A stretch of DNA of 64,000 nt from Escherichia phage S143_2. Numbering within the stretch: the stretch's first letter is position 1; every line of letters starts with the position of its first letter. Shown piece by piece: positions 1 to 48,206 of the stretch. The position numbers and the translations under genes were made by a program. Under the pieces are notes generated by a model. That model worked only from the letters and a program-made list of their open reading frames with translations. It did not search any database and had not been told where the DNA came from. The DNA lies in the sequence record MZ189261.1; one strand, given 5' to 3'.

Positions 1-154
1 TATCGAAATATTTCGTAGCCTGACTTTCCGGACAATGAGCAAACAGTGATGGTTTATATTCTACTTCACGAGTACGTTCACGGCCATTAGAATCGATGTA
101 ACGTTCAAAAATTGAATCACCAATCTGTTCAACCGTTAAGTAAAATTCTTTCAT
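1..154 (-). CDS. 43: DNA polymerase gp43, N-terminal fragment (gene continues past window start)
   Basis: ATG at 154 on minus strand; translation MKEFYLTVEQIGDSIFERYIDSNGRERTREVEYKPSLFAHCPESQATKYFD matches recalled RB69-type B-family polymerase N-terminus. Confidence 0.85.
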   Translation of the reverse strand, partial: MKEFYLTVEQIGDSIFERYIDSNGRERTREVEYKPSLFAHCPESQATKYFD

Positions 155-3610: not shown

Positions 3611-5299
3611 TTATGAAACAGTCATTACCGTAAATCGTCCAACTTTGCTCATCTGAAGATGTTGTCCATAACGTTGAGGGTCATGGTCTCGATGAGAGAT
3701 AATGAACACATTAGTATTTTGTAAACTTCCAAGAATGGTATCTATAGCCTTAACAGCCTCAGAATCGACAGCACCATCAAAAACCTCATCAAGAATCAGA
3801 GTGTTGATTTTAACACCAGAGACCTTTTCAGCAATATCTCGCCATGTAAACAACAATGCGATATCGATACGTGCCTTTTCACCTTGACTAAATGAAGCAT
3901 AACTAAAATCTTCACGACCACGTGATTTTATAGATTCATTGAATTCTTCGTCAATAGAAAACACGTAATCAGCTTCCATGATTTTAAGATAATAGTTAAT
4001 CTGCTTGTTGAACAGAGGCACATATTTTTTAATGATAGCACCTTTAATACCAGAATCTTTTAACATATCTGTGATAATACCACGATGGTATTTTTCAAGA
4101 ACGATATCAGATTTTGTTTTAATGATTTTATCAAGTTCTTTTTGAAGCAAAGCTATCTCATCAGCATGGTCGATAAATTCCGCCGAGGCTTGTTCTATTG
4201 CAGCTTTAACTTTCTTAGCTTTATCAATAGTGGCAATCATTGCTTGTTTTTTGGTACGAATATCAGATGCAAGGTCCTGTTTAGTCTTAACATTAGCTCT
4301 ATATTCGTCCACTAGGACACTCAGATTATCTCTGTGGCAGGTAAGTTGCTCGAATGAGTGATTACATTCATGAAGCTTATCGGTAATCTTAGAGACAATA
4401 GGATCACCCTGGTGCAACTGTGATGCACAAGTAGGACATGTACCACCATCATGATACATCTTAATAACTTTGTTATATGAGTCAATTTTAGATTTAATCA
4501 AGAATGCTTCTTGTCCGATCTTGTTGAACGCCTCAGTAGGGTCTTCGTCAAGAACGATATTAAGTAGACGCTCGTTAGCTTCTTCGATTTCTGCTTTTAA
4601 TGAACGAGCTTCTTTGGCTAGGTCGTCATACATATTCTGTAGACGCGCTACATTATCACCAGATAATTTCTTTTGACGTTCGATATTCTCGTTATAAATC
4701 TTAATTTGTTGGATAATACCATCTTTCTTGGCATCGAGAACTTGTCCCTGGGAATTAAGTTCTCGAACTTGAGACTTATTGATTTTATCCATTTCAGCGA
4801 GTGTGCCGACTTCTAAAAGGTCTTCGACAAGTTTTCTACGAGCAGGGGTGCTAAGAGCCATGAAAGGGGTATACCCTGCCGTCCCAAGCACAACGATTTG
4901 TTTAAAAGACGCGTATGACATTCCGATGCTACGTTCAAATTCTTCTTGGAAGTCACGACTGCTGGCAGATTCATCAAGACGAACACCGTCAACGGAGATT
5001 TCGAAAATATTGGGCTTTTGGCCACGTTTAATGAAGTATTTTTTACCATCGAATTCCATCCAAAGCTCAACTAAGAGCTCTTTCTTGTTCGTGCTATTAA
5101 TGATTTGCCCTTTCTTAACATCACGAAATGGTTTACCGAAAAGTCCGAAAGTAATGGCTTCTAACATCGTAGATTTACCACCACCATTTTTACCGGTGAT
5201 TAATGTCTTTTGGACTTTATCTAATTGGATATCAATAGGATTCCCACCTACCGACATGATGTTTTGATAACGAACACGATTTAATTTAAATGATTTCAT
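3611..5299 (-). CDS. 46: recombination nuclease ATPase subunit gp46 (Rad50/SbcC-like)
   Basis: 562 aa; Walker A GKNGGGKST; long coiled-coil middle; CxxC hook (CPTC); T4 gp46 is 560 aa. Confidence 0.9.
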   Translation of the reverse strand: MKSFKLNRVRYQNIMSVGGNPIDIQLDKVQKTLITGKNGGGKSTMLEAITFGLFGKPFRDVKKGQIINSTNKKELLVELWMEFDGKKYFIKRGQKPNIFEISVDGVRLDESASSRDFQEEFERSIGMSYASFKQIVVLGTAGYTPFMALSTPARRKLVEDLLEVGTLAEMDKINKSQVRELNSQGQVLDAKKDGIIQQIKIYNENIERQKKLSGDNVARLQNMYDDLAKEARSLKAEIEEANERLLNIVLDEDPTEAFNKIGQEAFLIKSKIDSYNKVIKMYHDGGTCPTCASQLHQGDPIVSKITDKLHECNHSFEQLTCHRDNLSVLVDEYRANVKTKQDLASDIRTKKQAMIATIDKAKKVKAAIEQASAEFIDHADEIALLQKELDKIIKTKSDIVLEKYHRGIITDMLKDSGIKGAIIKKYVPLFNKQINYYLKIMEADYVFSIDEEFNESIKSRGREDFSYASFSQGEKARIDIALLFTWRDIAEKVSGVKINTLILDEVFDGAVDSEAVKAIDTILGSLQNTNVFIISHRDHDPQRYGQHLQMSKVGRFTVMTVS

Positions 5300-5550
5300 A
5301 TGTATTCTCTTCGAATGAAGTCCTCTACATATTTTAACATGTCATCCCTATCAGCAAAATATTCATCTAGTTCTGCATACATAACAACACCTGGTGCGTA
5401 CTCACAGGTAACATACATTGTTCCAAAGAAACGAGGAGTTGATTCCTCGTAATTCTCAGTCCATTCAACGATACCAATATAACCGTCACCAATACTAAAT
5501 TCATGACGATGGATTTCATAATCAGTCTTCGTCATTATACGCGTCCTCAA
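5296..5550 (-). CDS. hypothetical protein (between 47 and 46)
   Basis: 84-aa ORF with ATGA-type overlap to gp46. Confidence 0.5.
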   Translation of the reverse strand: MRTRIMTKTDYEIHRHEFSIGDGYIGIVEWTENYEESTPRFFGTMYVTCEYAPGVVMYAELDEYFADRDDMLKYVEDFIRREYI

Positions 5551-5779
5551 TACATGCTTCAGCCATTTTAAGAATAGAGCCAGGAGTATCGTTGTCCATT
5601 ATATTAAAGCTAAATTCGATAGCCCAGTCGGTGCAGACATGAACTGCTTTAACTTCATTGCCTTCAATGCGTAATGGCTCAATCCAATACTTGATAGTGT
5701 TCTCGAATCCATCATCATCTTTAATGTCCATTTCAACTTCAAGCCTGAGTCCAGCATTGTTAAATTCATCTAAAGTCAT
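5522..5779 (-). CDS. hypothetical acidic protein (between 47 and 46)
   Basis: 85-aa ORF; overlaps gp47 stop. Confidence 0.5.
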   Translation of the reverse strand: MTLDEFNNAGLRLEVEMDIKDDDGFENTIKYWIEPLRIEGNEVKAVHVCTDWAIEFSFNIMDNDTPGSILKMAEACIEDAYNDED

Positions 5780-6795
5780 TGTGTTGCCTCAATATAAAGT
5801 TCGTTGGAATATTTGACCAGCGCTTCTCTGTCTTCGTCTGAGATATCTGGAATCGCGTCAATATATTCTTTAATGATATCTTGAAGTGATTTAATCTCGA
5901 TTTCCTGGTCGTCATCAGATTCAACACTGTTATCAACTTTAGAAACCATACGAAGAGAGTGAACTACTTTTTCAAGTTCAGATTCAAACTTAGTCAACTC
6001 TGAATCAATTTCTGATACTATAACACGTAAGGCTAGATTAGTATAATCAGAATAATTGATTTTGCCTTTAAACGGATAAGTGATTCGTCGATGCCATGTT
6101 GTTTCATTAGGAATAAATTCCATACGTTCAACATCAGTGTCAAATACCCAGAATCCGCGCGGGTCGTTCTCATCGCCTGCAGTAAGGGTCCATGGTGTCC
6201 CAATATATTTGACGTTAGCAGCTTCAGAGATTGTGTGGAAGTGGCCGGACCAGACTTGTTTATAGGTCTTTAAGAAATCAGGTTCAAGCCCATGAGACTT
6301 CATTCCTTTATAGAAATAAAAGCCATTCAGTTCCCAGTGCCCAACACAATAAGCGGCAGAAGAAGTCTTGATGTGCTCTAAGATTTCACCTGTATTTTCT
6401 TCACACATCCATGGAACGATATCAATCAGACATCCGTCAAAATCTACAGTAGTTGGATGCTCGTAAATAGTAAAGTTTTCAAATTGAGTTAACAATTCAG
6501 AAACAGTGTTAGGTGTTATTGTATTCTTAAACGCCATGTCATGATTTCCTATCGTGACATGAACGTGAATGCCTGCTTTAGAAATCATATCAACGATTTC
6601 ACGATTGAATTCCATTGTACGATGTGTTATTGCTTTACGGACGTCAAACCAATCACCGTACTGAATCCAAGTTTTAATCCCGTGTTTCTTAGAGTATTCA
6701 ATTGCTTGACGAATACCATCACGTTGAATATCTTGAACCCATGGGTCATCTTGTTTGACTCCGATATGGAAGTCGCCTAAGTGCAAAATTTTCAT
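5776..6795 (-). CDS. 47: recombination nuclease subunit gp47 (Mre11/SbcD-like)
   Basis: 339 aa, same as T4 gp47; phosphoesterase motifs (LHLGDFH, GNHD). Confidence 0.9.
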   Translation of the reverse strand: MKILHLGDFHIGVKQDDPWVQDIQRDGIRQAIEYSKKHGIKTWIQYGDWFDVRKAITHRTMEFNREIVDMISKAGIHVHVTIGNHDMAFKNTITPNTVSELLTQFENFTIYEHPTTVDFDGCLIDIVPWMCEENTGEILEHIKTSSAAYCVGHWELNGFYFYKGMKSHGLEPDFLKTYKQVWSGHFHTISEAANVKYIGTPWTLTAGDENDPRGFWVFDTDVERMEFIPNETTWHRRITYPFKGKINYSDYTNLALRVIVSEIDSELTKFESELEKVVHSLRMVSKVDNSVESDDDQEIEIKSLQDIIKEYIDAIPDISDEDREALVKYSNELYIEATQ

Positions 6796-6841
6796 ATTAT
6801 TTCCTCATTAGTTAATTCATTCTATCATCCGTTTATAAAGC

Positions 6842-6873
6842 AAAAAAAAAAAAAGGAACTCCGAAGAGTTCCT
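6842..6873 (-). terminator. rho-independent terminator (minus strand)
   Basis: 8-bp stem GGAACUC/GAGUUCC type with 4-nt loop, followed on minus strand by a 13-nt U run (plus-strand A13 at 6842-6854). Confidence 0.7.
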
Positions 6874-7045
6874 ATCCACATAGTACACCGTACAGAGGCT
6901 CATTTGAACTTTTAAATCGAATGGGCTTGTATGTAATAGTTCCTTCGGCTTTAGCTTTATCATAAGACTCTTTAAAACGTCTCATTCTTTCTGCTTTGCC
7001 TTTACGGATTTTATCGAAATTTTCAGAGGTCAGGTCGTTCGTCAT
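6872..7045 (-). CDS. hypothetical small basic protein (57 aa)
   Basis: ATG at 7045; MTNDLTSENFDKIRKGKAERMRRFKESYDKAKAEG...; below track cutoff; stop overlaps terminator stem. Confidence 0.35.
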   Translation of the reverse strand: MTNDLTSENFDKIRKGKAERMRRFKESYDKAKAEGTITYKPIRFKSSNEPLYGVLCG

Positions 7046-7087
7046 GCATAATCACCTCTCAGAAAATACCTAAATCGATTTCTCTCA

Positions 7088-7306
7088 TCATTTCCACCAT
7101 TTCTTAACTTGAAATGAATCAACCCATACGAGTTGTTTTGGGTCTGCCTTTACAATAGGTGGACAAATTTCTGTAATAGAACCGTCGTGATATTCCTTTT
7201 CAGAGATTTTAACACAAAGAGGACCTCCCAATTTAAGGGTGAACCCTGCGTTCAGCTTCAGACGTTTAAACTTTGTTTGAACTAGCGCCATTAATGATGT
7301 CCTCAA
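7088..7306 (-). CDS. hypothetical protein
   Basis: 72-aa ORF in the interval where T4 carries alpha-glucosyltransferase. Confidence 0.4.
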   Translation of the reverse strand: MRTSLMALVQTKFKRLKLNAGFTLKLGGPLCVKISEKEYHDGSITEICPPIVKADPKQLVWVDSFQVKKWWK

Positions 7307-7589
7307 TAGCCTGACGAGTAGTAACCCACTGGATTTTAATTAACTTGTCATTATATGGTTGTCGTAGAATATCCCGAGATTTCTTAATAGCATATTCGTA
7401 AGCTTCGAAGTTGTTTTGAATTGCTGCTTCTTGAGCATGAGCATAAAGACGGTTTAGTTCAAAACGATTCTTTTTAAGAATCTTTTCGGATTTTTTACGT
7501 GCTTCAGCTTCATTTTTCTTTTGGATTTCTTGTAGCATTTTAGCTACTGCATCTTCTGCTTCTTTATTTTCAATAATCTCGGTAGTCAT
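7266..7589 (-). CDS. hypothetical protein
   Basis: 107-aa ORF downstream of gene 55. Confidence 0.45.
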   Translation of the reverse strand: MTTEIIENKEAEDAVAKMLQEIQKKNEAEARKKSEKILKKNRFELNRLYAHAQEAAIQNNFEAYEYAIKKSRDILRQPYNDKLIKIQWVTTRQAIEDIINGASSNKV

Positions 7590-7590
7590 A

Positions 7591-7806
7591 TTATCTCATT
7601 AAATTAAAATAAAAACGTCCATCCTCTTCAATACAGAACTCATACTCAACCGGAGTCCCATTTATTGAAAATGACACGTCATGTGGGTTCAAAGGGTCGA
7701 TGTCAAAATTAATTTTAAATTCACGACCCAACAGTTTTACCAAATAAGGGATTGCTTCGTCAAAAGGTTCTTCTAAGTAGTTAGAGATGTCAATTGTCAT
7801 CCTCAT
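7591..7806 (-). CDS. hypothetical protein (start uncertain)
   Basis: track ORF 7591..7884 overlaps gene 55 by 95 nt; internal Met ([10 protein letters not shown]) more plausible. Confidence 0.35.
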
Positions 7807-8347
7807 ATAAAAAATCCAAACTAGGCGAATCGCTAACAACTTCCTTCTTTTCAGCCCCAGGAGCTTTATAAGCGGATTCTTCATAATGCGTCATTTTATC
7901 GTAGATGTCTTGAATAAACGTTTCATCTACCAACGCTACCATATCATCGTCATGACTGTCGTAGACATTATGAACGAAGTAACTATATTTCTTTGCAACT
8001 TCCTTACGTTCTTTTTTGATACGTTGGACAAAAGCATTAAAACAAGCTCGAGTTATGTATGCATGTGGGTTATTGTACTTAGTTTCGTCGAAATTATGAA
8101 GTCCCTTAATAGAGGCTTCAATCCCATCTGCAATCATCTCCTGCTTCCAAGACTGGGTATATCCTGAAAAGTTGAAACGTTTGGACAGGCCTTCGGCGAT
8201 AAGCATAATTGCTAAACCGATGGTATCATTCTGACGAATAATTTTGTTTGGGTCTTTATTATTTAAGAGCTCCTTTTTCCACTCGATTATAGCGGCGAGA
8301 AGCTCTTTATTATTCACATAGTTATTTTTAGGTTTTTGTTCAGTCAT
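7790..8347 (-). CDS. 55: late-transcription sigma factor gp55
   Basis: 185 aa, same as T4 gp55; sequence NYVNNKELL...[40 protein letters not shown] matches T4 gp55. Confidence 0.9.
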
Positions 8348-8419
8348 AAGTACCTCTTAGCTCAATTCATAGGTCTATTATATCATAATATTTAGAGACC
8401 TATCTTAAAGCACGAGATA

Positions 8420-8689
8420 CTATCGGAGCAAACAATAAGCCTGAAACACTTTTTCCATTAAACGTTTGAACTCATGGATATCGATATAAAGCTCAGTAAG
8501 ACCGGCATTATAAAGAAAATCTAAAAAGTTCTCATGTGTTTCGTTATAGTCGCCTTCGTTTAATTGAGATACATGAGTTTCCCAAAAACCAACACCTTTA
8601 ACGAATGGAAAATACGTGACTTTCATGTATTCGTCAACATAAAATTCGCCCAGCTTTTCTTCAGTTATACTGATTCGAGTTAATTTCAT
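8420..8689 (-). CDS. hypothetical protein
   Basis: 89-aa ORF. Confidence 0.45.
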   Translation of the reverse strand: MKLTRISITEEKLGEFYVDEYMKVTYFPFVKGVGFWETHVSQLNEGDYNETHENFLDFLYNAGLTELYIDIHEFKRLMEKVFQAYCLLR

Positions 8690-14066: not shown

Positions 14067-14536
14067 TTTAAACTCTTTCTAAGCTGCTTTTTGAATGAAG
14101 CTATTAATTGTGTTTTAGTATCTGATTCATTATATTCAAATCCTCTTTGAAGCATCTCGGTCATCATTTCCTCTTTACCTAGTCTTGAGAACTCTTTAGT
14201 TTTGTCTGGAACAAAATTAGGATGGATATTATTATCAGAATAATCTTGTTTCAAATAAGCGAGAAGAGCTTCAAGCCATTCTAGGTAGTCGACATCACGG
14301 CCTTTAAGACCAGAACGGTTGAACTTATGCTTCATTTGACCTTCTGCTGCGTTGCACAGATTACAGAGTAATCCACGAACTCTACCGGCTTTTGGCCCGT
14401 TTAATTCATGGTCGTGGTCAAGATGGTTACCTTGAACATCAGGGTCTAATTCACGGTGGCAAATAGGACACTTACCGTTCTGTGCATCATAAAATTTTTG
14501 TTTTTCTTCTTTATATTTTGCGCCTGATAATAACAT
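14063..14536 (-). CDS. 49: endonuclease VII (Holliday junction resolvase) gp49
   Basis: 157 aa; near-identical to T4 endo VII (GKCPICHREL...HLDHDHELNGPKAG...CNLCNAAEG). Confidence 0.9.
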   Translation of the reverse strand: MLLSGAKYKEEKQKFYDAQNGKCPICHRELDPDVQGNHLDHDHELNGPKAGRVRGLLCNLCNAAEGQMKHKFNRSGLKGRDVDYLEWLEALLAYLKQDYSDNNIHPNFVPDKTKEFSRLGKEEMMTEMLQRGFEYNESDTKTQLIASFKKQLRKSLK

Positions 14537-14571: not shown

Positions 14572-14985
14572 TTAACTTAAACGTCTTTCTAAATATTCAA
14601 TGTATTCTGCGGCTGCTTGCATCAGGTTACCTTCATAGCCGTCGTTATTTTCTTGTCCGGCTAATTTAGCTAAAGCATAAGAAATACGTTCACCTTCGAA
14701 TTCGCCAAGTCCACCATCACAAACTACTTGGTCAATTTCTTCGAGTTCATCTATTGAATGGGATTCCCAGAAGCACCAAAGAGAAGTATCACGGTCATAG
14801 ATGCAAAGTTTCTCACCTGTGTTCAACATCACTTCGATAATGCCATGGTCGCCATAACCATCTTCGGTAGTAGTACCAATTACCTTGATGATCGTATCTT
14901 TCTTTAATTCAGGAAACTTGACTTGTAGTTCTTCATCTTCTTTAACAATCTTGAACCATTTACCGCGAGTTTCAGAAATATTCAT
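14572..14985 (-). CDS. hypothetical acidic protein (start corrected to ATG 14985)
   Basis: 137 aa from MNISETRGKW...; track start 15123 lies in preceding frame. Confidence 0.4.
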   Translation of the reverse strand: MNISETRGKWFKIVKEDEELQVKFPELKKDTIIKVIGTTTEDGYGDHGIIEVMLNTGEKLCIYDRDTSLWCFWESHSIDELEEIDQVVCDGGLGEFEGERISYALAKLAGQENNDGYEGNLMQAAAEYIEYLERRLS

Positions 14986-15285
14986 ATCAATATTCTCTAT
15001 AAAAGTTACGATGAGAACGTTTAGCTTTGCGAAGCTGACGTTTAGTAGGACGAACTGTAAATGGTTGTCCAGAGAAAAAATTCGGATCGGTTTTAATAAG
15101 CAAATACCAATCATGTTTGCCATTTTTTAATAAACGGTACAATAATTTAACTTGCATAATAATCTCTTCCCATTTCCATATCAATTAATTCATTTATTGA
15201 AGGTTCATCATAACACGTTTCTTCGTCGTTGTAAACTGTTTCAACGTCTGGCTCGACAGTCTCCCAACGAGCAGAATACCACGGT

Positions 15286-22400: not shown

Positions 22401-23390
22401 TTATTTATAGTAAGAATTATGATTTTCGAGATAGACTTGTTCAAGGAAGTCATCCCAGAAACTCATATCTACTTTTTGTTGCATACCGTTCTTGGCAGCT
22501 TGTTCTGACGCATGTTCAACTTGGTCAACGATATCTTCTAGGAATTCTTGTACAGTTTTAAAAGTATGTTTACCAAGCTTAACATCGAGAATAAATGGAG
22601 CATCCTGAAGTGGGTAAACCAGGTCGCCTGTTTTGTAAATTTCCAATAATTGAAGTCCACCACGGCATGCATGACTCAATGCTTTCCAGTCAATACCTTC
22701 GTTAGCTTCTGCTTTACGAGCACGTTCGCCATAGTTCTCTTCTAGTTTAACAAGGATGGCATTGAACTCTTTATTGGTTAACGTGTCTTGGAATTTACGG
22801 TCTAACAGATTATAGAATGTTTGCTTACCTGTTTTCTCGTTTTCGGTTTCAACCCATGAAGCAAATTCACCTACAGGCAGAACATTCTTCATATGTGATA
22901 AACGAATTACTGCACCATTATCAAAGTATTGTCCCCATTCATTAGAACGTTTAAGGGCTTGACGAAGAACAGCCAGTCGAGAACCCTTGACACCGTATTT
23001 AGAAGCTTGCTTACGGACATACCCTAAATAAGATTTCATGTTAGTGGTATAGAAACGAGACCTGTTATCTTGAATATACTTCCATACATCAGGCAAATCA
23101 GATTTAACTACTAGACTTGGTGGAGTGTGAAGCATATCTAATGCGACGGTTTCACCATCCGCAGCTAGTTTAAAGAAATATTTGAGACTATACAACTCAT
23201 GGTCCACGTCGTCTTTTGTGTTCTTAGAAGATGTGTTATTCGTGTTCTTGCTCATATGTTCTTTAACGTTACCGGTCAAAATATCACGAGCATGAGGGAC
23301 ATAAATTTCTTTAAAATCGACGTCAGATTCAGGAGTAGACGTTCCATAAAGGTGGCTACCAAAGTAGCCTTTCATAATTGTTTTCATCAT
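22401..23390 (-). CDS. nucleotidyltransferase-fold protein (pol-beta-like NTase)
   Basis: 329 aa; N-terminal GSHLYGTSTPESDVDF (G[SG]-x9-13-DxD) followed by helical C-terminal region. Confidence 0.5.
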   Translation of the reverse strand: MMKTIMKGYFGSHLYGTSTPESDVDFKEIYVPHARDILTGNVKEHMSKNTNNTSSKNTKDDVDHELYSLKYFFKLAADGETVALDMLHTPPSLVVKSDLPDVWKYIQDNRSRFYTTNMKSYLGYVRKQASKYGVKGSRLAVLRQALKRSNEWGQYFDNGAVIRLSHMKNVLPVGEFASWVETENEKTGKQTFYNLLDRKFQDTLTNKEFNAILVKLEENYGERARKAEANEGIDWKALSHACRGGLQLLEIYKTGDLVYPLQDAPFILDVKLGKHTFKTVQEFLEDIVDQVEHASEQAAKNGMQQKVDMSFWDDFLEQVYLENHNSYYK

Positions 23391-26976: not shown

Positions 26977-27455
26977 TCAACAATCACAATTTCTAGTTTA
27001 GTGGAATATGTATCAAGAATTTCTTCAATGATATCCCAGTTTCCACCACCTATACCTGCACCAATTCTTGGCATATAAATTACAGGCTTTGTTATCTTAT
27101 TTTTTCCGAATTCATTTAATTCTATTATACAATTCGTTAAAGCATAGTACTCAAAATTAGGTCCCGGCTCAAACTGTGTATAAAGATTAAAGCAATAAGC
27201 TTTATGGGTCTTAAAATATTTTTCATAAACCGAATAAGTCCCGAGTTTAGACTCGTCTCCGAATTCGGTTTGAAGTTTATCGGCTTCTAGAATTTTTGGA
27301 TAAGCCTTTGCTAATTGTCCTGCCACACCGGCGCCCATTGTATGAAAACAATTACACCCATGAGCTATATTATTACCTTTAGAAAACAGGGCGACAATAT
27401 CGCCCTTGATATAGTTTTTAATCACTTGCTGCAAGTCCTCTAGTATAAGAGTCAA
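26958..27455 (-). CDS. macro-domain protein (ADP-ribose binding/hydrolase fold)
   Basis: 165 aa; GDIVALFSKGNNIAHGCNC...MGAGVAGQLAKA resembles macro-domain Gly-rich diphosphate-binding loop (compare viral X-domain GGGVAGAL). Confidence 0.55.
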   Translation of the reverse strand: MTLILEDLQQVIKNYIKGDIVALFSKGNNIAHGCNCFHTMGAGVAGQLAKAYPKILEADKLQTEFGDESKLGTYSVYEKYFKTHKAYCFNLYTQFEPGPNFEYYALTNCIIELNEFGKNKITKPVIYMPRIGAGIGGGNWDIIEEILDTYSTKLEIVIVDWEPLL

Positions 27456-31282: not shown

Positions 31283-31861
31283 TTAATTACCACGGGCTGC
31301 ATTAGCAACGGCATAAGCGTACTGAACATTAGCGTCTTTAAACGTACCTTTAGAGGTATCTATTTCTGCCTTAAAGCCGCCTTTAGCCATAACATCGGCA
31401 AATTCTTTACGGAAGGCCATTGCATCAAGACCTTTCCATGATGATTTATGCTTGGCAAATTCAAGACCTGCGAAGTTGACAGCTTTAGCCAATTTATTAT
31501 CAATGACCCATTTACCGGCTTTAGGCACAAACTTCGGTCCTTTTTGTTTAGAGAACAGTTTTAAATTCCAGCGACGAAGATCACTGTCGGCTTTAACAAA
31601 AGCTGCGTCTAAGTTACTAGCAACAACATCTTCAATATGAGCAAATTTAAGTCCGTCAACTTCAATATTTAGATCGTTACGCCAGCGAAGTCCTTCCCAA
31701 GCGAAGGCTTTAAAATCAGAAGCCTTTGTGGCTAGATATCGTTCAATTGGAGCAGTTTTAGGGTCAAAGCCGTTTCCACCACGATAAGTCCACTCGTCCT
31801 TATTAATGCCTTGAGCTTTTCCTGCAAAGGCCTCGGCGATAAATTCTTTATACGTTTTCAT
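31283..31861 (-). CDS. ipIII: internal protein III-like (CTS-bearing)
   Basis: 192 aa (T4 IPIII 194 aa); N-terminal MKTYKEFIAE. Confidence 0.6.
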   Translation of the reverse strand: MKTYKEFIAEAFAGKAQGINKDEWTYRGGNGFDPKTAPIERYLATKASDFKAFAWEGLRWRNDLNIEVDGLKFAHIEDVVASNLDAAFVKADSDLRRWNLKLFSKQKGPKFVPKAGKWVIDNKLAKAVNFAGLEFAKHKSSWKGLDAMAFRKEFADVMAKGGFKAEIDTSKGTFKDANVQYAYAVANAARGN

Positions 31862-40718: not shown

Positions 40719-40804
40719 AACATTTTCCTCATGTTTTTATAGGTCTATAGTAACACATCTAGGGAAGAAGTAAACAACTTTTTCAGTAAGTTATAGACCC
40801 CCTA

Positions 40805-40824
40805 ATGGGGACCGAAGTCCCCAT
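40805..40824 (-). other. stable stem-loop with UUCG tetraloop (AUGGGGAC-UUCG-GUCCCCAU)
   Basis: perfect 8-bp stem 4 nt after stop of 40828..41454. Confidence 0.45.
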
Positions 40825-40827
40825 TCT

Positions 40828-41454
40828 TTACTTACGAGTTTTTGCATACTGAGCAGCGTCAGCAGCCAAACGACCTGCCTGACGAAGTTTTTCTTTAATC
40901 GCATCGTGAAGTGGTTGAGTATACTTCAAACCTTCGATAGTCAAATAAAGACGATAAAGGTCTGGGGTGTCAAGGTTGTTGATATGTTGGCCATTACGAA
41001 GAATATTGAATTCACGAACGAGTGAAGATGTATCAGATTCAATATCACGAACAAGCGAAGATAGTTGTTTATATTTTTTTTCCAGGCTAGAAGTATCAAA
41101 CTTAAGAGCAGGAGCTTTAGGAGTTGCTTTTACTTCCGGCTTAGGCTCAGGTTTTGCTACTGCTTTAGGGGTCGCAGGTTTAGGAGTGGTAGGAGCAGGT
41201 TTCACTTTAGGCGAACCCGATTTAGCAGAAACACCACCACTAACAATATCTTTGAATGCTTTAGAAGCTCTGTAATATTCTTTTTGGCTGGAAGTGTCGA
41301 TACCGTACATGGCTTGAACGTTTTTGAAAAACTCTGTACTAGTTTTTGTACCAGAAATAGCATCGTAAGCAGCTTGCCATTTCTCTTTTGTCATACGTAC
41401 ACCGGCTTCGGTGATTACTTCCGTTTCGGCTAAAAATTCATTAAAAGTATACAT
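40828..41454 (-). CDS. Pro/Lys-rich protein with degenerate CTS-like leader
   Basis: 208 aa; N-terminus MYTFNEFLAE resembles CTS; central PKPATPKAVAKPEPKPEVKATPKAP low-complexity linker. Confidence 0.5.
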   Translation of the reverse strand: MYTFNEFLAETEVITEAGVRMTKEKWQAAYDAISGTKTSTEFFKNVQAMYGIDTSSQKEYYRASKAFKDIVSGGVSAKSGSPKVKPAPTTPKPATPKAVAKPEPKPEVKATPKAPALKFDTSSLEKKYKQLSSLVRDIESDTSSLVREFNILRNGQHINNLDTPDLYRLYLTIEGLKYTQPLHDAIKEKLRQAGRLAADAAQYAKTRK

Positions 41455-41498
41455 TGATGGTCCTTAGAAAGTAGGTTTATTGTTTACTATATTTATAC

Positions 41499-41526
41499 AA
41501 AAAAGCCCCAACCTTTCGGAAGGGGC
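41499..41526 (-). terminator. rho-independent terminator (minus strand)
   Basis: interrupted GC-rich hairpin (GCCCC..CC-uuuc-GG..GGGGC) followed by U6 on minus strand. Confidence 0.55.
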
Positions 41527-41829
41527 TATATACCTTGTCGGGGTTCCACCTACTAAGGCAAGTGTTTGTACGAAACGCCGGGGTTCGAACCCGGTTATTA
41601 AGCAGTTGACGCTACTCAATATTTTTAAAAGGCCATATCTCGACCATATCCGAACGTTCCGTCAAAAACGCTACTCGGCTTACGGCAAAGATATTTCCTC
41701 GAATCGATAATTCGGTGCGCCGTTTCTGCTGTGGTGTAAGGGGATATTAACAAATCGTAAAGATTTATTAAGACCAGTCCTTACTCAGGGAACATCAGTC
41801 CGACGACTTACCGGTAGCGACCCGGCTTC

Positions 41830-42174
41830 TTATTTTGGCATATCATCAATTTGCTCTCGACGCCGACGCCATAGATTAATCGCTTCATTAACACATTCGG
41901 CGTTTGGTATATGACGGCAATAATATAATGATTCGCGTTTCTGGAACCGATGTTGCAATGGGATTTCGTTTAAAAGGTCTTTACGGTCAAAGTATTCAAA
42001 ACTAGTTAACCCGGAACGGTTTTTAATGAACTTCCAATGACCGAATTCATTTTGAACATAGATGTAATCTGCGTGTTGGTATAACAAATTAATCAATCGG
42101 TCTGAAATAACTGTATCATGTTCGTTAAAATAAAACGTTAAATCATGAACTACTAAGTAAACATTACCTTTCAT
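41830..42174 (-). CDS. hypothetical protein (start corrected to ATG 42174)
   Basis: 115 aa from MKGNVYLVVHD...; track start 42222 would overlap tRNA-Arg. Confidence 0.45.
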   Translation of the reverse strand: MKGNVYLVVHDLTFYFNEHDTVISDRLINLLYQHADYIYVQNEFGHWKFIKNRSGLTSFEYFDRKDLLNEIPLQHRFQKRESLYYCRHIPNAECVNEAINLWRRRREQIDDMPK

Positions 42175-42192
42175 ATTTTCCTCACTTAAAGT

Positions 42193-42269
<77 letters not shown>

Positions 42270-42273
42270 TATT

Positions 42274-42348
42274 TGGCGGACGTGATAGGATTCGAACCTA
42301 TAACCAATCGCTTAACAGGCGATCGCTCTGCCATTGAGCTACACATCC
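42274..42348 (-). tRNA. tRNA-Asn (anticodon GUU)
   Basis: 75-nt cloverleaf; anticodon stem ATCGC/GCGAT, loop CUGUUAA; T-arm GGTTCGAATCC; encoded CCA. Confidence 0.8.
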
Positions 42349-42352
42349 AAAT

Positions 42353-42439
42353 TGGTGGGGAGTGATGGAGTCGAACCACCCGAGTCGCAATGACAATGGA
42401 TTTACAGTCCACACCGCTACCTCTACGGGATAACTCCCC
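42353..42439 (-). tRNA. tRNA-Tyr (anticodon GUA)
   Basis: 87 nt with long variable arm; anticodon loop CUGUAAA; acceptor GGGGAGT/ACTCCCC; encoded CCA. Confidence 0.75.
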
Positions 42440-42451
42440 TAATTCATAATT

Positions 42452-42526
42452 TGGTGGCCCTGGGTGGAATTGAACCACCATCTGGCGATTATGAGTCGCT
42501 TGCTTGAACCTTCCAGCTACAGGGCC
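42452..42526 (-). tRNA. tRNA with CAU anticodon (Met or Ile2)
   Basis: 75-nt cloverleaf; anticodon loop CUCAUAA; position after Thr corresponds to T4 tRNA-Ile. Confidence 0.75.
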
Positions 42527-42527
42527 T

Positions 42528-42604
42528 TGGTGCTGATTGACGGAATCGAACCGCCGACCTTCTCATTACAAGTGAGTTGCTCTACCTACTGAGCTAAATC
42601 AGCA
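42528..42604 (-). tRNA. tRNA-Thr (anticodon UGU)
   Basis: 77-nt cloverleaf; anticodon loop CUUGUAA; T-arm GGTTCGATTCC. Confidence 0.8.
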
Positions 42605-42608
42605 AAAC

Positions 42609-42698
42609 TGGCGGAGGCGATAGGATTTGAACCTATGAGTCGCCGGAGCGACTGCCGGTTTTCAAGACCGGTGCATTAAACCACTCTGCCACGCCTCC
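42609..42698 (-). tRNA. tRNA-Ser (anticodon UGA)
   Basis: 90 nt with long variable arm; anticodon loop CUUGAAA; acceptor GGAGGCG/CGCCTCC. Confidence 0.8.
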
Positions 42699-42700
42699 AG

Positions 42701-42774
42701 TCTCCATACAAGGATTTGAACCTTGGGCCTCCTGATCCCAAATCAGGCGCTCTACCAAACTGAGCTACACGGAG
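42701..42774 (-). tRNA. tRNA-Pro (anticodon UGG)
   Basis: 74 nt; anticodon loop UUUGGGA; T-arm GGTTCAAATCC; CCA not encoded. Confidence 0.75.
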
Positions 42775-42784
42775 TAAATTAAAT

Positions 42785-42858
<74 letters not shown>

Positions 42859-42863
42859 AAATT

Positions 42864-42950
42864 TGGTGCGAGAAGTGGGACTCGAACCCACAAGGAAATC
42901 ATTCCGCAGCATTTTAAGTGCTGTGCCTTTACCAATTTGGCCATTCTCGC
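42864..42950 (-). tRNA. tRNA-Leu (anticodon UAA)
   Basis: 87 nt with long variable arm; anticodon loop CUUAAAA. Confidence 0.8.
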
Positions 42951-42951
42951 G

Positions 42952-43024
42952 CTGGGAATAAAGGACTCGAACCTTTGCATCCTGGAATCAAAATCCAGTG
43001 CCTTACCAACTTGGCTAATTCCCA
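42952..43024 (-). tRNA. tRNA-Gln (anticodon UUG)
   Basis: 73 nt; anticodon loop UUUUGAU; T-arm GGTTCGAGTCC; CCA not encoded. Confidence 0.75.
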
Positions 43025-43121
43025 ATTATTAACAAAGGCTCTCTAACAAGAACCCTTGATGATAGAGGGTATTAATCAGTGCGATATGAGTTAATAATAA
43101 CAAATAATTCTTAAAGCATAT

Positions 43122-43415
43122 TTACCATTTATGATAATACATATTTACGATGCAGTCAAGACCCAAAGGATTCTTGAAAATATCATATTCAAGAGGACCT
43201 TTTTCCGTTTCAATAAAGAAATCAAAATTTACTGTATTAAATTTACGGTCTTCCTTCACTAATTTAACTTGAGAAGATGAACGGTCAATGTAAACCTTTT
43301 CAACTTCAAAACATGTTAAAATGCCATAATCATCAATCAAGGCTTTAGCCGCGTCTTGATCATATTTATATCCATTTTCAATAGACGATACTTTAGCATA
43401 AAGAATCATTATCAA
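43122..43415 (-). CDS. hypothetical protein
   Basis: 97-aa ORF upstream of tRNA cluster. Confidence 0.45.
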   Translation of the reverse strand: MIMILYAKVSSIENGYKYDQDAAKALIDDYGILTCFEVEKVYIDRSSSQVKLVKEDRKFNTVNFDFFIETEKGPLEYDIFKNPLGLDCIVNMYYHKW

Positions 43416-43810
43416 CCTTCATCAACAATAGTATGAGTATGAGCATTTACAATTTGCCACCAATCAAAGCGATTAGAACCATACATCAGGTTGTTCTCAT
43501 TTTCTTTGATAATGTCACGGAGTTCATCTTCAGTAGCGGCTTTCGCTATTAAATCAGCATATCCACCGCGAGGATAATAATTATCACCTGCAAAAAGTAA
43601 AAAGTTCGGTTTAATATTATTGAACTCTTCAAGAGTAATAACTTTTCCTGTCGGTTGAACAATCTCTACATATTTATATCCTAATTTTTGAGCAGCATCT
43701 ACTGCTTCAAGCAAAGTATCATGAGCCCATCCAATTTGACAACCTGGCTTTTCAGATGGATTAGCCTGATAATCCGCGTACACTTTATACATTCTATTCA
43801 CCTTTTGCAA
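43412..43810 (-). CDS. hypothetical protein
   Basis: 132-aa ORF. Confidence 0.45.
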   Translation of the reverse strand: MQKVNRMYKVYADYQANPSEKPGCQIGWAHDTLLEAVDAAQKLGYKYVEIVQPTGKVITLEEFNNIKPNFLLFAGDNYYPRGGYADLIAKAATEDELRDIIKENENNLMYGSNRFDWWQIVNAHTHTIVDEG

Positions 43811-43979
43811 TTTTATCCATAACGATAGCGATTAAGCCGATTAGAAATGCTACTACCAATGAGATAGAATTTTCGGTTGTTGTCAGTAGTCCACAAATGA
43901 ATCCTACAAACATCGAAAAACTAAAAGCCATTGAAGCAATTACTACAGCAACATTACGAATCAGTTCAGCGCGTTTCAT
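43794..43979 (-). CDS. small membrane protein
   Basis: 61 aa, two hydrophobic helices. Confidence 0.45.
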   Translation of the reverse strand: MKRAELIRNVAVVIASMAFSFSMFVGFICGLLTTTENSISLVVAFLIGLIAIVMDKIAKGE

Positions 43980-44048
43980 TTTATTCTCCTCGGTAGTTGA
44001 TAGGGTAATAGTATCACTACCCTATCTAAAAGTAAACGGTTTTATAAA

Positions 44049-44357
44049 CTATTTTATTCCGCGTGATGCAATCGTATTCTGCCGTTTAACGCCAGTTTGT
44101 TTAAAGTTATGATTGTCAAGTTGATCGGTACGAGCAACTCCGAATGATGATTTAATCTTAGCTTTAGATCCTTTAGTTATAGAAATAAACATCTCGGGAG
44201 CCCCTTTCTTAAAGTCCGAAGCAATTACTTCAACACCGTTCTTAGCAAGTGACCTCAGAATTGCTTCCGCGTACTCATCATCAAGACCCGCTTGAGTATG
44301 AATAACGAATGTCTTTGGTGCAGCCGCTTCATTGATAAATTCTTTATAGGTTTTCAT
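44049..44357 (-). CDS. internal protein (CTS-bearing), IPI-locus
   Basis: 102 aa; MKTYKEFINE leader; early promoter module upstream. Confidence 0.6.
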   Translation of the reverse strand: MKTYKEFINEAAAPKTFVIHTQAGLDDEYAEAILRSLAKNGVEVIASDFKKGAPEMFISITKGSKAKIKSSFGVARTDQLDNHNFKQTGVKRQNTIASRGIK

Positions 44358-44417
44358 TTTATTTTCCTAATTAATTTTGATGAGATAATAATACCACAAC
44401 CCTATTTAAAAGTAAAC

Positions 44418-44690
44418 TCATTTTAAATAAATTGCGTATTTTTTATAACCCGCCGACTCATGACGAAGACCCTTATCATTAGCAAAACGCTCAATGTTGT
44501 TAATTTGATTCTGGTCAAGTTCAGAGATGTCAAACACGAAAAAGTTACGTTTGTTACCAACTGTTACATAGTCAGTTAAATCAATATCATATAGGTAATT
44601 GATGTCAGCAATCAAAGTCTTGACAGCTTTGCTAATTTTTACTTTTTCGTTAAAAGTAGCTTCATTGATAAATTCTTTATAGGTTTTCAT
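44418..44690 (-). CDS. internal protein (CTS-bearing), IPI-locus
   Basis: 90 aa; MKTYKEFINE leader. Confidence 0.6.
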   Translation of the reverse strand: MKTYKEFINEATFNEKVKISKAVKTLIADINYLYDIDLTDYVTVGNKRNFFVFDISELDQNQINNIERFANDKGLRHESAGYKKYAIYLK

Positions 44691-45457: not shown

Positions 45458-46192
45458 TTACCTTAAGATTGTTTCAATTTTAGAATAAAGCTCTTCTAAA
45501 GAGCCGTCGTTTGTAATAACTAAATCGCCTTCTTCAATAGGCAACCCAGCTTCTGTAATATGTTTATCGGTGGATTCCGTACCAGAGCGAACCACATGAA
45601 TAACTGTAGCACCCATCGCTCTAGCGGTTTCCATTTCATGGACTTGGCGGGTATCGGTCACAACGTAGTAATCGAAATCGCTTCCAATATAATCCATATA
45701 GTTTAATGCAAAAAGTTTAACCCAATACATACGGTCAAATAAATTAACGACAACATCCGTACCGAGGGCTTGCATAAGACGGCGGATTGACCATGTGTCG
45801 TTGATATTATTTATAGCTTCGCGCAGGGCTTCATATGGTTTAATATCTAGATACGAATATCCACCTTCTAACGATGATAATACTTTAACATTATTAATTG
45901 GTAAATATTGACTTTGCAAATAAATTAGCGCTTCTTCCAATAATTCAATAACATCCAACTTATTGAGATTTAATGGTGTTTCACGGTCGTATCCAATGCC
46001 TTCAAAGTATTCGTATTTCAACTCTGTGAATACATCAGGATTTTCAGCATGCCTACGTTCCCAGGCTATTGCTAGAGCGTCTTTAATCGGATATGCCAAT
46101 TGATATTTTACTGATTTAAAGTTTGAATTGATGTAATCAGCAGTAGTATCTTTGCCACTACGTTTGATGCCACTTAAAAAGATTAGCTCCAT
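45458..46192 (-). CDS. 1: deoxynucleoside monophosphate kinase gp1
   Basis: 244 aa; P-loop GIKRSGKDT; T4 gp1 is 241 aa. Confidence 0.9.
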   Translation of the reverse strand: MELIFLSGIKRSGKDTTADYINSNFKSVKYQLAYPIKDALAIAWERRHAENPDVFTELKYEYFEGIGYDRETPLNLNKLDVIELLEEALIYLQSQYLPINNVKVLSSLEGGYSYLDIKPYEALREAINNINDTWSIRRLMQALGTDVVVNLFDRMYWVKLFALNYMDYIGSDFDYYVVTDTRQVHEMETARAMGATVIHVVRSGTESTDKHITEAGLPIEEGDLVITNDGSLEELYSKIETILR

Positions 46193-47756: not shown

Positions 47757-48206
47757 TTACCCCTTGTATCCGAGTTTCCTAAGTCCGTCTTCGGTTAGAA
47801 CTCGAAATTTTATATTTCTCTTTTCTGCGACAGCAGAAGCAGCTTTCCATTTGTCGCAGTTCACAGACCAGGTGTATATTTCATTCATATAACGTTTCTT
47901 TGCTGCGGTAGTAAGATTTGCAGGCTTAATAGGTGGCTGAGTTTCTTTCTTTGGTTTTATTTCTACAAAGAACTCTTGACCTGATGCATCTTTCATCCAT
48001 ATGTCCATATAGTATCGACGTTTCTTACCTTCAGCATTACAAAAATATGGAATTACTGCCGTTTCGCTGCCCCATGCAATAATTTCTGGATTTTTATCCA
48101 ACCATTCGAAAAAGAATTTTTCCCAGTTTGAACGATACGTTATTTTGGTATGGTCTCCACGGTATTTTTTTAAATTTTTCGGGACCCATTTACCAGAGTA
48201 GGCCAT
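47757..48206 (-). CDS. 4: head completion protein gp4
   Basis: 150 aa from ATG 48206 ([11 protein letters not shown]...), preceded by AAGGAGG; T4 gp4 is 150 aa. Confidence 0.85.

Follow-up and report, generated by a model that had tools for sequence, protein, structure and literature searches.

The interval between genes 47 and 55 of an RB69-type Escherichia phage carries no alpha-glucosyltransferase gene, the normal arrangement in Mosigvirus

The best described relative of the DNA studied here is phage RB69, whose cytosines have been found to bear arabinose and not glucose (Thomas et al. 2018, PMC6024577); the same work put forward ORF003c as a candidate transferase (PMC6024577). Homologues of T4 a-gt, T4 b-gt and T2 ba-gt are missing from RB69 according to BlastP searches (PMC6024577 section 3.2; PMC13326640 section 21). 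The modified base has since been reported to be mono- and di-arabinosyl-5-hydroxycytosine, not hydroxymethylcytosine (hmC) (Lee et al. 2026, PMC13326640). The modification genes of RB69 comprise the gp45-gp55 cluster (p045-p055) together with p003 (PMC13326640). Within this set, the thymidylate-synthase homologue gp48 is the 5hodCMP synthase (PMC13326640), and gp159 was shown to turn 5-hydroxy-dCMP into the diphosphate (PMC13326640 section 24). Transfer of the first arabinose by p046:47 and of the second by p003 are activities that the study proposes (PMC13326640).

In T4, by comparison, the locus of interest (NC_000866, 35,428-40,157) reads 47, 47.1, a-gt, mobB, a-gt.2 to a-gt.5 and 55, where a-gt encodes a 400-aa alpha-glucosyltransferase of the GT-B type and mobB a homing endonuclease. 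Promoter-stem-loop modules, named PeSL and PmSL, have also been described in T4-like phages (Arbiol et al. 2010, PMC2839356; Comeau et al. 2014, PMC4122927), and in the PmSL variant of vibriophage nt-1 a TGCTT Mot box and a -10 box directly follow the stem-loop.

The DNA that we analysed, referred to below as the window, is a stretch of 64,000 nucleotides from Escherichia phage S143_2 (MZ189261.1), and by its sequence this is an RB69-type phage of the genus Mosigvirus. The DNA identity of the window is 95-99% to RB69 and about 150 other records, and of the nearest records among the matches listed nearly all are assigned to Mosigvirus by their name or taxonomy line. It is collinear with positions 33,197-82,000 of RB69; most of positions 1-49,580 is 95-98% identical to that phage, the collinear blocks mostly reaching 94-98% with weaker patches at 41,491-44,364, and positions 1-25,000 are about 97% identical to several Mosigvirus genomes. 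The segment around the interval (5500-8600) reaches 98.5% identity to RB69 and 99.0% to the best record, and is matched with at least 80% coverage in 146 records. Gene 43, encoding the DNA polymerase, is cut by the window's left edge, and the 51 codons that remain (2-154, minus strand) are 100% identical to RB69 gp43 residues 1-51 by tblastn; an earlier note on this DNA spoke of an RB69-like polymerase, which holds on the basis of these first 51 codons.

The interval is bordered on the left by gene 47 (5776-6795, minus strand), a 339-aa ORF for an Mre11/SbcD-like recombination nuclease subunit whose product is 75.5% identical to T4 gp47 and 99.7% to RB69 gp47. On the right lies gene 55 (7790-8347, minus strand), a 185-aa ORF for the late sigma factor, with 90.7% amino acid identity to T4 gp55 and 99.5% to that of RB69. 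The ORF list of the window holds exactly four ORFs between them, all on the minus strand. The homologue of a-gt.2 (6872-7045, 57 aa) matches Pfam DUF5486 at E = 4.5e-28 and is 75% identical to its T4 counterpart and 98.2% to that of RB69. The a-gt.3 homologue (7088-7291, 67 aa from its ATG) matches phrog_1648 at E = 4.5e-34, with identities of 70% to T4 and 98.5% to RB69; it would be 72 aa long if an upstream TTG at 7306 is taken as the start. That of a-gt.4 (7266-7589, 107 aa) falls in Pfam DUF2654 (E = 1e-27) and shares 58% identity with T4 and 100% with RB69, and that of a-gt.5 (7591-7800, 69 aa from the ATG annotated in RB69) falls in Pfam DUF5491 (E = 5.2e-13), shares 47% and 100%, respectively, and overlaps the end of gene 55 by 11 nt. 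All four family matches are above threshold, and all four proteins are homologous to T4 proteins. The earlier note had listed ORFs of 57, 72, 107 and about 70 aa; the count of four stands, and the second length is correct from the TTG, the ATG giving 67 aa. Its central observation, that no a-gt lies between 47 and 55, is borne out as well, as there are only small ORFs and a 76-bp spacer here, and nothing resembling a roughly 400-aa a-gt homologue between 47 and a-gt.2. For the functions of a-gt.2 to a-gt.5, Pfam offers only DUFs and PHROGs, with one exception, only the label "unknown function". The exception is a family of 62 residues among the matches whose label, "head maturation protease", is probably an annotation artefact. 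We found no PDB relatives of these proteins at E <= 0.6, and a full-text literature search for the names "a-gt.2" to "a-gt.5" gave one incidental mention.

The spacer (6796-6871, minus strand) occupies the position of T4 47.1, a-gt and mobB, so that 76 bp in the window stand against 2.3 kb in T4. It contains a terminator stem, a T-run, a putative middle promoter of the Mot-box type and the ribosome-binding site of gene 47 (GAGG, 6806-6803, minus strand). The strong terminator noted earlier was recovered by a terminator scan as a UUCG hairpin followed by T13. The hairpin, AGGAACTC-UUCG-GAGUUCCU at 6873-6854 on the minus strand, has an 8-bp stem, begins within the a-gt.2 stop codon and folds at -12 kcal/mol (z = -3.4), with equally good folds in none of 200 shuffles. 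The T13 tract (6854-6842, minus strand) forms its U-tract, and the length of this run varies across Mosigvirus isolates, from T6 in RB69, 308Ecol101PP and two IMG/VR contigs to T10 in APCEc01, T11 in JK36 and T13 in the window; the IMG/VR scan for the spacer yielded only those two contigs, too few for a length distribution. A Mot-box-like TGCTTTA (6842-6836, minus strand) lies 11 nt before a -10-like TAGAAT (6824-6819, minus strand), and the two (6819-6842) may form a MotA-dependent middle promoter for genes 47/46. Where 3.6 occurrences of the Mot-box plus -10 pattern would be expected in the window, there are 13, and in four other genera a-gt.2 likewise has a TGCTTTA plus -10 module on its 3' side. 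The relative F31 has an annotated MotA. Judged by sequence pattern only, the arrangement is also that of PmSL: a TGCTT Mot box comes immediately after a stem-loop, and a -10 box follows 11-13 nt further on, much as in nt-1. We compared the spacer with the corresponding junctions of T4, RB6, VR26, KMB17 and KP13MC5-5, and a hidden a-gt remnant was ruled out, as the 76 bp are fully explained by the hairpin, T-run, Mot box, -10 element and ribosome-binding site.

RB69 has the same genes in the same order and on the same strand (47, a-gt.2, a-gt.3, a-gt.4, a-gt.5, 55; AY303349, 38,972-41,536). Its four small proteins are 98.2-100% identical to those of the window, a-gt.3 being one residue shorter in the window, and the hairpin, Mot box and ribosome-binding site of the spacer are shared, while the T-run is 6 nt long in RB69 and 13 nt in the window and the -10 hexamer is TAAAAT in RB69 and TAGAAT in the window. 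The same uninterrupted junction is present at 95% DNA identity or more in 149 phage records. The interval is the normal, conserved arrangement of Mosigvirus: 55, the small early genes a-gt.5, a-gt.4, a-gt.3 and a-gt.2, the hairpin and then a putative Mot-box promoter before 47.

We regard this as an RB69-type phage with a genus-normal interval that lacks a-gt and with DNA carrying arabinosyl-5-hydroxycytosine, a reading to which we assign a probability of about 0.9. What we observed directly is the gene content, that no known T-even glucosyltransferase lies in the window, and that the nearest complete genome has the RB69 cluster; the chemistry and the enzyme activities come from the literature, and from 64 kb and from the relatives we infer that the window phage shares both the cluster and the modified DNA of RB69. 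In RB69, p045-p055 lie between uvsX and gene 43, just left of the region that the window covers, and p003 lies near rIIA. The closest complete genome over window positions 1-25,000 is that of F31, in which p045-p055 and p003 are present at 96.7-99.7% amino acid identity; the cluster lies directly past the left edge of the window, p003 adjoins rIIA, and p046:47 and p052:53 are each a single ORF. The window starts 154 nt into gene 43, the gene that borders the arabinosylation cluster in both RB69 and F31. On the maps of these two phages, gene 1 is the only pathway gene within the range of the window; the others lie outside it, those of the cluster between uvsX and gene 43 and p003 beside rIIA. 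The cluster and p003 are not in our 64 kb, and their presence in the window phage is deduced from its relatives; the earlier suggestion that the responsible enzymes lie elsewhere agrees with their position and with their presence in F31. At the level of the genus the counts agree, with 155 phage records that have p003 at 95% identity or more and 149 that have the window-type junction.

The one step of RB69 cytosine modification that appears to be encoded within the window is gene 1 (45458-46192, minus strand), predicted to be a dNMP kinase by its match to Pfam DNMK (E = 3.7e-97) and its 96.3% identity to RB69 gp1/p159; its activity on 5-hydroxy-dCMP is taken from PMC13326640. RB69, in which the arabinosyl-5-hydroxycytosine system was described, is of the same genus as the window phage, which shares this kinase. 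In the pathway that we propose for the window phage, the thymidylate-synthase homologue p048 would make 5-hydroxy-dCMP, which gp1 would phosphorylate, and 5-hydroxycytosine, once incorporated in DNA, would receive one or two arabinoses from the glycosyltransferases p046:47 and p003, with the arabinose nucleotide supplied by p050-p055. Such a phage would have no use for a-gt, because its DNA would carry no hmC, as shown experimentally for RB69. The earlier proposal of a lineage without T4-type glucosylation, possibly with RB69-like arabinosylation, is supported by the RB69 literature and the F31 cluster, apart from the base, which it took to be hmC and which is reported as 5-hydroxycytosine.

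The flanking genes and four small genes of T4 are homologous to those of the window at 47-91% amino acid identity, and a-gt is found at the same site in T4/RB6, KP13MC5-5 (65.8% amino acid identity) and Cronus (56.5%). In Tequatrovirus, Jiaodavirus and Roskildevirus it forms a self-contained cassette between a-gt.2 and 47, and its homologues fall into three identity classes, at least 90% (Tequatrovirus), about 66% (Klebsiella Jiaodavirus) and at most 60%. Karamvirus KMB17 and Gaprivervirus VR26 also have no a-gt at the site, and among the matches listed b-gt homologues occur in Karamvirus KMB20, CC31 and PG7, KMB17 not being among them. Because these two genera also lack a-gt there while other Karamvirus phages have b-gt, the locus alone does not determine the modification, and absence of a-gt from the site does not by itself predict a modification other than glucose.

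As a secondary inference, a loss of the cassette in the Mosigvirus lineage is more likely than three gains, a direction that we read from the identity levels of three proteins in five genera and not from a phylogeny. The less likely alternative is that Mosigvirus never had a-gt at this site and that Tequatrovirus, Jiaodavirus and Roskildevirus acquired the cassette by insertion or horizontal spread. In its favour, a-gt has a promoter and a terminator of its own and so forms a self-contained unit, on whose flanks lie repeated modules of a kind proposed for modular shuffling (PMC2839356, PMC4122927), the homing endonuclease gene mobB adjoins it in T4, and three sampled genera (Karamvirus, Gaprivervirus and that of the window) are without it. 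However, the site is identical in three genera, and the divergence of a-gt between T4 and Jiaodavirus (66%) tracks that of the flanking core genes (70% and 77%; for T4 and KP13MC5-5, 69.7% for gp47 and 77.2% for gp55). The window is, moreover, closer to T4 (75.5% and 90.7% for the same proteins) than KP13MC5-5 is. Together, the shared site, this parallel divergence and the proximity of the window to T4 favour vertical descent with losses.

If the cassette was lost, the likely route would be recombination between the near-identical modules of hairpin and TGCTTTA promoter on either side of a-gt in T4-like genomes. Genomes with a-gt have the module of hairpin, TGCTTTA and -10 on each side of the gene, and those without a-gt have it once; in T4 a second hairpin and Mot-box module follows a-gt, and the window has one. 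After the a-gt.2 stop codon, both T4 and the window carry a UUCG hairpin and then TGCTTTATAAA. The window module is hybrid-like, in that its hairpin and TGCTTTATAAA match the a-gt.2 side of T4, and CGGATGATAGAAT, which comes next, resembles CGGAGTTTGATATAAT of the 47.1 side. We tentatively consider that the 76-bp spacer could be the scar of a precise excision via two near-identical "UUCG hairpin + TGCTTTATA Mot box" modules, although this is a doubtful reconstruction. Like the PeSL and PmSL modules, the window module sits at the border of a variable gene cassette, here the a-gt site of Tevenvirinae coliphages, and PMC4122927 names neither RB69 nor a-gt; its role as a promoter or as a recombination substrate is putative.

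Returning to the DNA modification itself, the phage could still glucosylate hmC if a-gt, b-gt or ba-gt had moved outside the window, which covers only 64 kb of roughly 169 kb and does not include the T4 position of b-gt, beside gene 42. A tblastn search of the window with 21 query proteins found no glycosyltransferase or arabinosylation gene. T4 a-gt gave a best E of 0.53 over the whole 64 kb, this protein together with T4 b-gt, T4 gp42 and RB69 p003, p046, p047, p048 and p050-p055 all stayed at E > 0.01, and RB6 ba-gt gave E > 1. A T-even glucosyl-hmC system (b-gt or ba-gt plus gp42) is found neither in the window nor in the rest of F31, and in T4 these genes fall outside the region that the window covers, which makes this result indirect for the window phage itself. 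A composite of F31 1-33,500, the window and F31 95,000-169,298 likewise contained no a-gt, b-gt or ba-gt (E <= 0.01). The gene at the gp42 site in F31 is of the RB69 p048 type (98.7% identity) and, like the RB69 5-hydroxy-dCMP synthase, only 25% identical to T4 gp42. A check suggested earlier, for glycosyltransferases and dCMP hydroxymethylase, returned neither in the 64-kb window, and its premise of a dCMP hydroxymethylase fails, the RB69 counterpart being a 5-hydroxy-dCMP synthase. With the closest complete genome carrying the RB69 cluster in place of these genes, with BlastP finding none in RB69, and with all a-gt and b-gt matches in 50,697 phage records belonging to the identity classes of other genera, a relocated glucosyltransferase is very improbable.

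Nor does it seem at all probable that one of the small ORFs, or another uncharacterised ORF of the window, is a novel DNA glycosyltransferase replacing a-gt. Such a role might be imagined for the four small ORFs, which have no assigned function or solved structure, or for several window ORFs of 200-330 aa without a Pfam match. However, the four proteins measure 57-107 aa, against 400 for a-gt, 351 for b-gt, 280 for ba-gt and 366 for RB69 p003, and their genes are kept beside a-gt in T4, RB6, KP13MC5-5 and Cronus, which makes them companions of a-gt and not replacements for it. Among 20 larger non-structural ORFs of the window, a Pfam scan found no glycosyltransferase family, and neither did a PHROGs scan of the 8 without a Pfam match; the large unassigned ORFs (nrdC.3, nrdC.6, e.5 and e.6) are also T4 genes. 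The "nucleotidyltransferase" nrdC.11 (22401-23390) is an RlaP/Pol-beta family protein, annotated in RB69 under the same T4 gene name. The published pathway, moreover, already accounts for both arabinoses through p046:47 and p003. Finally, an assembly error or laboratory deletion in a single sequence, a general possibility to which only the T13 run, longer than in the relatives examined, lends anything specific, is already contradicted by the data, as the junction occurs in 149 records overall and is identical, save for T-run length and one -10 base, in RB69, JK36, APCEc01, 308Ecol101PP and two IMG/VR contigs.

The reading of the window as an arabinosylating RB69-type phage is essentially one already published, and the finding is correct but ordinary: the RB69 record AY303349 already annotates the interval without a-gt, a 2018 paper made the connection with arabinosylation, and the chemistry and pathway were reported in 2026, this last work also correcting the hmC premise, the base being 5-hydroxycytosine. 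For T4-like contigs, an interval of this kind between 47 and 55 can serve as a quick marker of the RB69 group, whose DNA should be resistant to the majority of restriction enzymes and should not be acted on by tools specific to glucosyl-hmC. More broadly, the comparison shows a-gt as a cassette that is bounded by a promoter and a terminator and keeps one conserved site in three genera; it neatly illustrates modular gene loss, of which similar cases have been described before. If the excision did take place, read-through from the operon of gene 55 into 47/46 would be tuned by the T-run, which is prone to slippage and ranges from 6 to 13 T among isolates, and middle-promoter stem-loop modules would be handles for the gain and loss of DNA-modification genes in the Tevenvirinae.

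Over window positions 5500-8600, S143_2 shares 98.5% identity with RB69 and 99.0% with Escherichia phage 308Ecol101PP, and 146 records span at least 80% of this region. The first 25 kb of the window are ~97% identical to several Mosigvirus genomes, and RB69 is collinear with the window from 33,197 onward. An RB69-like polymerase, as described in the earlier note, is borne out only for residues 1-51 of gp43, which are all of the polymerase that the window contains (2-154, 100% identity to RB69 gp43). The minus strand carries all genes of the 47-55 part of the window, where gene 47 (5776-6795; 75.5% amino acid identity to T4 gp47 and 99.7% to the RB69 protein) and gene 55 (7790-8347; 90.7% and 99.5%, respectively) enclose homologues of a-gt.2 (6872-7045; 57 aa, DUF5486, 75% identity to T4), a-gt.3 (7088-7291; 67 aa from ATG, phrog_1648, 70%), a-gt.4 (7266-7589; 107 aa, DUF2654, 58%), and a-gt.5 (7591-7800; 69 aa, DUF5491, 47%), the last of which shares 11 nt with the gene 55 end. 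The RB69 record annotates the four ORFs under these names, with 98.2-100% identity to the window. The ORF coordinates, together with the hairpin scan and fold described below, bear out in every particular the earlier observation of four small ORFs, a terminator, and no a-gt between genes 47 and 55; the ORF listed there as 72 aa is the 67-aa ORF counted from an upstream TTG at 7306.

In T4, 47.1, the alpha-glucosyltransferase gene a-gt (400 aa), and the homing endonuclease gene mobB occupy 2.3 kb between gene 47 and a-gt.2, whereas the window has 76 bp there. Searches of the window with tblastn gave nothing below E = 0.01 for T4 a-gt, b-gt, and gp42, or for RB69 p003, p045, p046, p047, p048, and p050-p055, and nothing below E = 1 for the T2-type ba-gt of RB6. 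No glycosyltransferase family was found among 20 larger window ORFs using Pfam, or, using PHROGs, among the 8 of these that lack a Pfam match. The four small ORFs can be ruled out as a replacement for a-gt, as they adjoin it in T4, RB6, Klebsiella phage KP13MC5-5, and Erwinia phage Cronus and are also kept in phages that lack it. They belong to families with no assigned function, a PDB search returned no relative, and a full-text literature search found nothing on their function; their names reflect map position only. The a-gt.2 homologue matches phrog_17354 (E = 3e-14), labeled “head maturation protease”, and at least one GenBank record (H49) carries this label on a gene of the interval. It looks like a propagated misannotation, as such a role is impossible for a 57-aa basic protein.

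The absence of a-gt from this site is not by itself diagnostic of the modification type. The gene is also missing there in Karamvirus KMB17 and Gaprivervirus VR26, and other Karamvirus records (KMB20, CC31, PG7) have b-gt homologues, several adjoining an annotated ba-gt (PMC6024577). It is instead the RB69 identity of the window that identifies the modification. RB69 DNA contains arabinose, the phage has no a-gt, b-gt, or ba-gt homologue, and ORF003c is its proposed transferase (Thomas et al. 2018, PMC6024577). In a later revision of this chemistry, the base that bears the sugar is reported to be 5-hydroxycytosine rather than hmC, with mono- and di-arabinosylated forms taking the place of all cytosine (Lee et al. 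2026, PMC13326640). In that scheme, 5-hydroxy-dCMP is made by the thymidylate synthase homologue gp48 with molecular oxygen and flavin and phosphorylated by the dNMP kinase gp159, while gp46:47 is proposed to transfer the first arabinose, gp3 the second, and gp50-gp55 to synthesize the arabinose nucleotide (PMC13326640). The arabinosylation suggested in the earlier note is supported with respect to the sugar, but not to hmC as the base. The enzyme to seek also differs from the dCMP hydroxymethylase named there, RB69 p048 being only 25% identical to T4 gp42.

The RB69 modification genes map at 24.0-30.6 kb (uvsX to gene 43) and at 2.5-3.6 kb adjoining rIIA, and the former stretch would fall just past the left edge of the window. 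Gene 1 (45458-46192; 96.3% identity to RB69 gp159) is the only pathway component inside it. Among complete genomes, vB_Eco_F31 is the nearest to window 1-25,000, and it encodes the whole cluster directly beside gene 43 (96.7-99.7% protein identity) as well as p003, consistent with the expectation that the enzymes lie elsewhere. Two genes split in RB69 are single ORFs in F31, namely p046:47 (299 aa, F31 locus L012 24238-25137; RB69 locus L003 6598-7498) and p052:53 (561 aa, L012 27738-29423; L003 10095-11781); the p046/p047 split has been attributed to a sequencing error in the RB69 record (PMC13326640), with which the F31 ORF agrees. No a-gt, b-gt, or ba-gt was present in the window, nor in a composite sequence that flanks it with F31 1-33,500 and F31 95,000-169,298. 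At the genus level, the number of phage records with p003 at ≥95% identity (155) agrees with the number having the window-type junction (149). RB69 identity, the F31 cluster, and the RB69 literature thus support the earlier proposal of a lineage without T4-type hmC glucosylation; the RB69 genome annotation already shows the a-gt-less interval, and the papers of 2018 and 2026 already describe the arabinosylation.

Some parts of the window differ from RB69. Similarity is patchy in the tRNA and internal-protein region, and 40733-41490 and 42344-44654 match it weakly or not at all; the former contains an ORF of unassigned function (40828-41454, minus strand; 208 aa, phrog_2280). Segment 31254-31835 (ORF 31283-31861, minus strand) has no RB69 counterpart; its 192-aa product falls in phrog_5341 (E = 9e-118), a family labeled “internal virion protein”. 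Some internal head proteins of T4-like phages inhibit restriction enzymes that depend on DNA modification (IPI* work, cited in PMC13326640), so a variable one near an unusual DNA modification may merit a look. At junction 14572, the window lacks 192 bp (RB69 47,768-47,959) holding RB69 ORF087c, which makes the longest ORF across pinA (14572-15123) read as 183 aa, with the PinA domain covering only residues 53-183.

Read along the minus strand, the 76-bp spacer consists of the a-gt.2 stop, a hairpin, T13, TGCTTTA, 11 nt, TAGAAT, GAGG, and the gene 47 ATG. The hairpin (AGGAACUC-UUCG-GAGUUCCU, 6873-6854), found by a terminator scan, starts within the stop codon of a-gt.2, folds at -12 kcal/mol (z = -3.4, beating 200 of 200 shuffles), and is directly followed by the T-run (6854-6842). 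TGCTTTA (6842-6836) with the -10-like TAGAAT (6824-6819) at such spacing is the form of a T4 middle (MotA-dependent) promoter, and GAGG is at 6806-6803. The pattern TGCTTNA-N11-13-TANNNT occurs at 13 sites in the window (3.6 expected from shuffles), and MotA is annotated in F31. Several sites, including 4125-4149, 14129-14154, 27119-27144, and 43094-43118, lie on the minus strand, which encodes the early and middle genes. Among otherwise near-identical Mosigvirus sequences, the T-run varies (T13 in the window, T10 in APCEc01, T11 in JK36, and T6 in RB69, 308Ecol101PP, and two IMG/VR contigs), which could be due to polymerase slippage or homopolymer sequencing error, and the -10 hexamer switches between TAGAAT and TAAAAT. 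It is doubtful that the spacer, together with its variable T-run, is a recombination scar.

A module of UUCG-type hairpin, TGCTTTA, and -10 box follows a-gt.2 in T4, RB6, VR26, KMB17, KP13MC5-5, and Cronus. A second copy follows a-gt in the a-gt-bearing T4, RB6, and KP13MC5-5, whereas Cronus has only a plain hairpin there; the repeated modules thus mark a-gt as a self-contained cassette. They resemble the PeSL/PmSL elements, through which T4-like phages are proposed to shuffle gene modules (PMC2839356; PMC4122927). The a-gt homologues of KP13MC5-5 (Jiaodavirus; locus L010 1212-2411) and Cronus (Roskildevirus; locus L011 2501-3697) lie between gene 47 and an a-gt.2-like ORF, and all genes of this region in KP13MC5-5 are annotated merely as “hypothetical protein”. 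Three genera carry a-gt at the identical site, its divergence from T4 a-gt (91% identity in RB6, 66% in KP13MC5-5, 56% in Cronus) keeps pace with that of the core genes on either side, and the window is nearer to T4 than KP13MC5-5 is. That the ancestor of Mosigvirus already lacked a-gt seems unlikely to us, though we give it some weight because the case for loss draws on identity levels in few taxa. From these comparisons of sequence, loss of a-gt in the Mosigvirus lineage would be more likely than three separate gains.
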